Shown here: positions 60,125 to 60,631 of the stretch, piece after piece
How positions within the stretch are numbered: the first letter of the stretch is position 1
How the letters are laid out: each line of letters opens with the position of its first letter
NCBI RefSeq assembly: GCF_030013205.1
Contig: NZ_CP122648.1
Strand: one strand, 5' to 3'
DNA length: 64,000 bases
Source: Escherichia coli
Lineage (GTDB): Bacteria; Pseudomonadota; Gammaproteobacteria; Enterobacterales; Enterobacteriaceae
The notes under the pieces: generated by a model
The model's input: only the letters and a program-made list of their open reading frames with translations
Databases searched by the model: none
Told to the model about the DNA's origin: nothing
Made by a program: the position numbers and the translations under genes

Positions 60125-60631
60125 TCAGAACGGAATATCGTCATCAAAGTCCATCGGCGGCTCGTTAGACGGTGCTGCCGGAGCAGACTGCTGCGGGCGA
60201 GACTGCGCGCCGCCGCTGAACTGATTGCCGCCCTGCGGCTGACCACCACCGATATTGCCACCTGCAGGAGCGCCACCACCCTGACGACCACCCAACATCT
60301 GCATGGTGCCACCAACGTTCACCACGACTTCTGTGGTGTAGCGATCCTGACCGGATTGATCGGTCCATTTGCGGGTACGCAGCTGACCTTCGATATAAAC
60401 CTGAGAACCTTTACGCAGATATTCGCTGGCTACTTCTGCCAGTTTGCCGAACAGCACAACGCGGTGCCATTCAGTCTGCTCTTTCATCTCGCCGGTCGCT
60501 TTGTCACGCCAGGATTCGGAAGTAGCCAGCGTAATGTTGGCAACAGCGCCACCATTTGGCATGTAGCGTACTTCCGGGTCCTGACCCAGATTACCAACGA
60601 GAATAACCTTGTTTACGCCTCTGCTGGCCAT
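60125..60631 (-). CDS. ssb: Single-stranded DNA-binding protein SSB (168-aa allele with shortened linker)
   Basis: [28 protein letters not shown]... OB-fold, Gly/Gln-rich linker, acidic tip DFDDDIPF; linker reads ...[14 protein letters not shown].... Confidence 0.93.

Follow-up and report, generated by a model that had tools for sequence, protein, structure and literature searches.

Slipped-strand deletions between short direct repeats are the class of events that comes closest to the locus presented here. They are RecA-independent; the first were mapped in lacI, and tandem-repeat reporter assays followed later. Two short direct repeats are involved, and one repeat is lost together with the intervening DNA. 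On the protein side, the closest described system is the SSB protein of Escherichia coli K-12 (UniProt P0AGE0; PDB 1EQQ/4MZ9), which comprises 178 amino acids and is encoded next to yjcB and divergently from uvrA. Three PXXP motifs in its linker, PQQP being one of them, were proposed to mediate protein contacts (PMC7145534). However, Shinn et al. (2019) reported that the linker and its PXXP motifs contribute nothing to the binding of RecO, PriA, PriC or chi (PMC7145534). A third group of related systems are the engineered linker deletions ssbΔ130-166, Δ139-164, Δ151-166 and Δ120-166 (PMC10164576; Kozlov/Lohman constructs, PMC7145534), in which the linker is shortened in frame, with OB fold and acidic tip retained. 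In the study of Bonde et al. (2023), chromosomal ssbΔ151-166, Δ139-164 and Δ130-166 conferred wild-type growth without a defect in competition, wild-type survival of UV, ciprofloxacin and mitomycin C, and no SOS induction (PMC10164576). Only ssbΔ120-166 showed a slight impairment, which was rescued by ten scrambled residues; the authors concluded that the linker has to have at least 11-20 residues and that their sequence is of no importance (PMC10164576).

Here, we describe a natural ssb allele of E. coli which lacks ten linker residues (Δ10). The window, which is the whole stretch of 64,000 nucleotides that was analysed, belongs to the chromosome of strain ETEC4079 (pig faeces, Belgium) and was compared with the record NZ_CP122643.1. 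Window positions 1-40100 are 100% identical to this record, and between 40000 and 64000 a single T differs, in a T4/T5 homopolymer at ~47241. This site (~47237-47241), located in the nrfA-acs intergenic region with T4 in the window and T5 in NZ_CP122643.1, is the only difference over 64 kb. The corresponding spans of sister strains imply T4, and the T5 looks like a nanopore homopolymer error in NZ_CP122643.1, unless the window stems from a sibling isolate or from a different version of the assembly. In another part of the window (~8165-8862), the RefSeq annotation of the identical record shows an IS1-family transposase with a programmed frameshift, inserted between crfC and yjdM. The ssb gene is found in its normal setting, divergent from uvrA and adjoining yjcB, as in K-12. 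Its features are as follows.

60125..60631, minus strand: ssb (ssb1), Δ10 allele, 168 codons plus stop, protein WP_096955297.1 (ORF list, RefSeq annotation of the identical record, NCBIfam NF006533)
60293..60631, minus strand: Met1 and the OB-fold DNA-binding and tetramerisation domain (mature residues 1-112), unchanged (identity to PDB 1EQQ; limits from PMC7145534)
60155..60292, minus strand: intrinsically disordered linker, 46 residues instead of 56, without WGQPQQPQGG (translation and 1EQQ alignment; limits and PXXP motifs from PMC7145534)
60228..60241, minus strand: sole remaining copy of the 14-bp repeat CAGCCGCAGGGCGG, which encodes QPQGG and forms the deletion junction (sequence, comparison with ETEC1748)
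60128..60154, minus strand: intact acidic C-terminal tip MDFDDDIPF, at which partner proteins dock (translation; corresponds to 1EQQ residues 170-178)

The open reading frame starts with ATG, ends with TGA and encodes 168 amino acids. Membership in the family of bacterial homotetrameric SSB proteins was tested with the respective profiles (NCBIfam NF006533/PRK09010, TIGR00621; Pfam PF00436). NF006533 covered residues 1-168 with 333.4 bits (cutoff 260) and TIGR00621 scored 204 bits (cutoff 54); the protein is a member of the enterobacterial SSB subfamily, well over the profile cutoff. In a search against PDB sequences, residues 1-135 were 100% identical to residues 1-135 of 1EQQ, and residues 130-168 were identical to residues 140-178 of the 1EQQ chain, so that exactly ten linker residues are absent. 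The alignment of the DNA with full-length alleles accordingly contains a single clean gap of 30 bp. A sequence-only reading of this DNA had compared the 168-residue protein with the linker of K-12 and named WGQPQQPQGG (30 bp) as the missing part of the 178-residue protein. The K-12 linker given there agrees with 1EQQ, and the loss is borne out by this alignment and by the gap in the DNA. It had also regarded the OB fold and the acidic tip as intact, which the identity of residues 1-135 and the retained MDFDDDIPF, ending in DDDIPF, corroborate.

In the numbering from Met1 the absent segment corresponds to W136-G145. The register of the deletion is ambiguous, and any placement from Δ131-140 to Δ136-145 (Met1 numbering) is equally valid, because QPQGG is encoded by the repeat on both sides. 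The lost segment holds the only tryptophan of the linker and the PQQP motif, and in these ten residues the protein differs from that of K-12, whereas the OB fold, the acidic tip and all other linker residues are identical. Judging from the identical OB domain, the Δ10 protein would be expected to form tetramers and to bind ssDNA. With 46 residues the remaining linker is above the functional minimum of 11-20 residues (PMC10164576). In genome annotation, a 168-residue SSB should not be marked as a truncation or a pseudogene.

The parental state of the allele can be seen in the closest complete genomes (K_EC180, ETEC1748, ETEC4067, 4070, 4071 and others), in which the 24-kb flank matches and the span is exactly 30 bp longer. 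This longer span is the only difference in at least five sister strains matching the flank. The ssb gene of ETEC1748 has 537 nt, and all 507 positions shared with the window gene are identical. Its linker DNA reads ...GGT CAGCCGCAGGGCGG TTGGGGTCAGCCTCAG CAGCCGCAGGGCGG CAAT... and thereby contains a perfect 14-bp direct repeat, CAGCCGCAGGGCGG, in two copies separated by a 16-bp spacer, with a period of 30 bp. In the window one copy is kept; the other copy and the spacer, exactly one 30-bp period, are gone. An enumeration of all in-frame direct repeats in the linker DNA identified CAGCCGCAGGGCGG as the longest. The sequence-only reading had placed the junction at 60221-60232, between short direct repeats of 11 nucleotides. 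The flanking repeats do exist, but the retained copy is located at 60228-60241, and in the ETEC4079 lineage the repeat is a perfect 14-mer; 11 bp is its length in the commoner haplotype (GGC/GGT). The potential of the repeat-spacer-repeat DNA for hairpin formation was also calculated and is weak, with a z-score of about -2.5 against shuffled sequences and a minimum free energy structure that makes up 9% of the ensemble. A DNA hairpin was set aside as support for the deletion, being only weakly better than shuffles and having a minor minimum free energy structure.

We consider it probable, at roughly 85%, that this is a genuine and very recent in-frame deletion of 30 bp in ssb of ETEC4079 which arose by slippage at a recurrent hotspot, in a linker whose length is, in this range, neutral or nearly so. 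The parental gene would have carried the two perfect copies of CAGCCGCAGGGCGG and the 16-bp spacer that are still found in the sister strains. During replication, the nascent-strand copy of one repeat would have mispaired with the other copy on the template. Such mispairing would lead to the loss of one repeat and the spacer, as in the classic RecA-independent deletions between short direct repeats, and the resulting SSB would have a linker of 46 instead of 56 residues between a normal OB fold and a normal acidic tip. The anatomy of the locus supports a slipped-strand deletion, the slippage step itself being deduced, because sister strains keep the two-copy parent, the deletion recurs on unrelated backgrounds and a reciprocal duplication exists. 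On these grounds, together with the removal of just one 30-bp period, the replication slippage assumed by the sequence-only reading stands. Compared with the classic cases there is no difference in kind: the event is recurrent, the reciprocal duplication is seen at the ssb linker as well, and what is particular is that the gene is essential and the in-frame change in length is tolerated. Since only one copy of the repeat is left, the Δ10 allele could not revert by slippage.

The same locus could be explained by an error of assembly or consensus, with a true ssb of 537 nt from which 30 bp were lost when the GC-rich, repetitive linker was assembled or polished from nanopore reads. ETEC4079 was described by Vereecke et al. 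(2023), and the genomes of that study are nanopore-only, built as Trycycler consensus with medaka polishing (PMC10151945). The assembly is thus based on ONT reads without short-read polishing, the homopolymer at ~47241 differs between the window and the RefSeq record, and within its clone ETEC4079 alone has the deletion. The usual errors of ONT consensus sequences are homopolymer indels of 1-2 bp, not clean in-frame losses of 30 bp at a repeat. Here, the clean in-frame loss ends exactly at the repeat, and with a repeat of 14 bp and a period of 30 bp, far below the length of any read or assembly overlap, a collapse would not be expected. Moreover, other laboratories have obtained exactly this allele in many independent assemblies, from other lineages. 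An artefact is therefore very unlikely in our view.

For the population survey of Δ10 we used a junction-specific query of 52 nt, for which full-length alleles give no 28-mer seed across the junction. As the 28-mer seed of the C-type query misses T-type junctions, the census was run with both C-type and T-type queries. The C-type query detected one complete genome, ETEC4079 itself, and the T-type query one further, strain 26_141088 (NZ_AP026090.1). Of ~5,424 complete E. coli genomes, two (~0.04%) thus carry the deletion. By both queries, 574 complete genomes are full-length with the GGC-type (14-bp repeat) and 4,844 with the GGT-type (11-bp repeat). In the larger protein collection, the exact 168-residue protein WP_096955297.1 occurs in ~80 contigs (205 index blocks). 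A survey of ssb alleles across E. coli and Shigella had been proposed by the sequence-only reading; in the collections covered here, Δ10 is rare and extends to E. albertii, and a seven-residue deletion that is named for Shigella boydii is on record in 209 contigs. A literature search for reports on natural polymorphism of the ssb linker found nothing relevant. From the scan of species representatives, only the results for E. albertii and E. whittamii were used. The representative of E. coli is absent from it, though the right half of the pattern is found in 5,420 of 5,424 complete E. coli genomes; it may have a longer variant of the linker, or its left 14-mer may contain a SNP.

Eight other carriers (L004-L011) were read. 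They have C or T at the junction and distinct synonymous haplotypes: the E. coli carriers differ from the window ssb at 4-10 synonymous sites, two of the eight (L006 and L009) differ at 31-32 sites, and the uvrA flanks show a mutual divergence of 2-3.5%. In L011, a phage-type integrase (PF00589) and two genes without a Pfam hit (3666-6507) follow directly downstream of ssb and replace yjcB and pdeC, which points to an integrated element at a site downstream of ssb. Among the other loci, a 9.5-kb contig assigned to 'Flavobacterium paronense CECT 8460' (L015, NZ_JAUFQN010000013.1, tig00000241) is ~97% identical to the uvrA-ssb region of E. coli, with many small indels and a frameshifted ssb. The contig probably stems from E. 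coli DNA that contaminated a long-read assembly of Flavobacterium.

The backgrounds of the carriers were compared with full-length genomes. For L007 the nearest full-length complete genomes belong to the SMS-3-5 group, for L005 they are O157:H7 strains, and for L010 they are Nissle 1917, ATCC 25922 and clone D i14 (Nissle/ST73-like). In all three cases the 6.5-kb locus is identical to that of the neighbours except for a span longer by 30 bp in the latter. L006 and L009 belong to E. albertii, given a flank identity of 98.8% with the type strain of this species and of 86% with E. coli; they are 0.4% apart from each other. In the E. albertii type strain and in E. whittamii, ssb is full-length. 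Between ssb and yjcB, at ~3597-3918, L006 and L009 have ~350 extra bp, including two copies of ~150 bp with 95% identity. Because the nearest neighbours of the carriers are full-length and otherwise identical, the comparison supports an independent origin of Δ10 on unrelated backgrounds (O157:H7-like, Nissle/ST73-like, SMS-3-5-like and E. albertii). On the level of these sequences, the tested carriers are tip mutations, each with an otherwise identical full-length nearest neighbour.

It could be argued that ETEC4079 obtained its allele by homologous recombination from another Δ10 strain rather than de novo, given that the allele circulates in the species and that E. coli recombines. However, the full-length sisters have the same sequence at all 507 ssb positions and over the surrounding 24 kb, and the other examined Δ10 alleles differ at 4-32 synonymous sites, leaving no plausible donor among them. 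We regard such an import as extremely unlikely. With a local slippage event as the preferred explanation, the repeat would act as a mutational hotspot at which Δ10 recurs sporadically in E. coli as well as in E. albertii. The allele would stay at low frequency because the length of the linker is, in this range, presumably neutral or nearly so, as published deletion mutants suggest.

If the linker DNA is prone to slippage, other lengths can be predicted from its repeats. Ten other in-frame products were predicted in this way and looked up by exact sequence, and 8 of 10 are on record. The reciprocal +10 duplication (188 aa) was found in 129 contigs and a Δ7 allele (171 aa), named for Shigella boydii (B2TX90_SHIB3), in 209 contigs. 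Less abundant are +7 (185 aa, 13 contigs), Δ5 (173 aa, 5 contigs), an alternative Δ10 (168 aa, 3 contigs), Δ20 (158 aa, 2 contigs), an alternative +10 (188 aa, 1 contig) and Δ1 (177 aa, 1 contig). Like the allele of ETEC4079, the natural alleles +10, Δ7, +7, Δ20, Δ5 and alternative Δ10 are in-frame products that are predicted from short direct repeats in the Gly/Gln/Pro-rich linker DNA; they differ from it in the repeat pair or in the direction, gain versus loss. The +10 duplication uses exactly the same repeat pair as Δ10, and in the DNA of the 188-residue allele the 30-bp unit that is lost in Δ10 stands twice in perfect tandem. In contrast to Δ10, this duplication is revertible by slippage. 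Two of the loci with a 188-residue ssb (L018 and L023, 3001-3567) have the spacer variant CCA in both units and six others have CCT in both; the duplication therefore arose in situ on at least two haplotypes. In the Δ7 allele the repeat is the 8-bp GGTCAGCC with a period of 21. The occurrence of this allele in Shigella boydii suggests that a shortened linker is established in a whole lineage.

Recurrence could also be read as convergence under positive selection, if a shorter linker altered cooperativity, condensation or the recruitment of partners to the advantage of the cell in some niches. Δ10 recurs on at least five unrelated backgrounds in two species, some carriers fall into small sets of similar contigs (at most 9 in the sample that was read), the lost segment contains PQQP as one of the three proposed PXXP contact motifs, and the Δ7 linker allele is widespread in Shigella boydii. 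Yet the reciprocal +10 allele is about as common as Δ10 (129 versus 80 contigs) and further lengths occur, which leaves no directional preference for shortening. Also, Δ10 makes up ~0.04% of complete genomes with the tested carriers appearing as tip mutations, larger deletions that span the segment have no phenotype, and the model of interaction through PXXP motifs was not supported. We consider selection for a shorter linker improbable. The similar frequency of gain and loss, together with the several other lengths, argues for a mutational bias in a tolerant region instead.

The effect on function can be estimated from the engineered mutants. The whole natural Δ10 segment falls inside the engineered Δ130-166, and as 46 linker residues are left, a neutral or near-neutral phenotype would be expected; from the published deletion mutants, the Δ10 allele is most likely neutral or nearly so. 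The sequence-only reading had pointed to linker length as a modulator of cooperativity and of partner binding. This is documented for much larger deletions, whereas Δ130-166 behaves like the wild type even in competition. Regarding the lost tryptophan, a 2025 phase-separation paper does not mention any role for the tryptophan of the linker or for its aromatic residues. A more far-reaching idea is that the linker acts as a length-variable hotspot, in which -10/+10 and -7/+7 alleles provide heritable and sometimes transiently selected variation in cooperativity or condensates. We rate it as quite improbable; if true, the hotspot would have effects in natural populations of E. coli, Shigella and E. 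albertii that are invisible to standard laboratory assays.

In summary, Δ10 is rare and recurrent, and probably a neutral polymorphism of a fully known gene; its exact protein is already in the databases. Gene and protein are established, as are the mechanism of deletion and the tolerance towards a shorter linker, and the biological weight of the allele is small. What our comparison adds is a natural, low-frequency spectrum of in-frame linker lengths (Δ20, Δ10, Δ7, Δ5, +7 and +10), with Δ7 widespread in Shigella boydii. This spectrum gives population-level support to the view of the SSB linker as a spacer, in which what counts is a length above a minimum and not the sequence.
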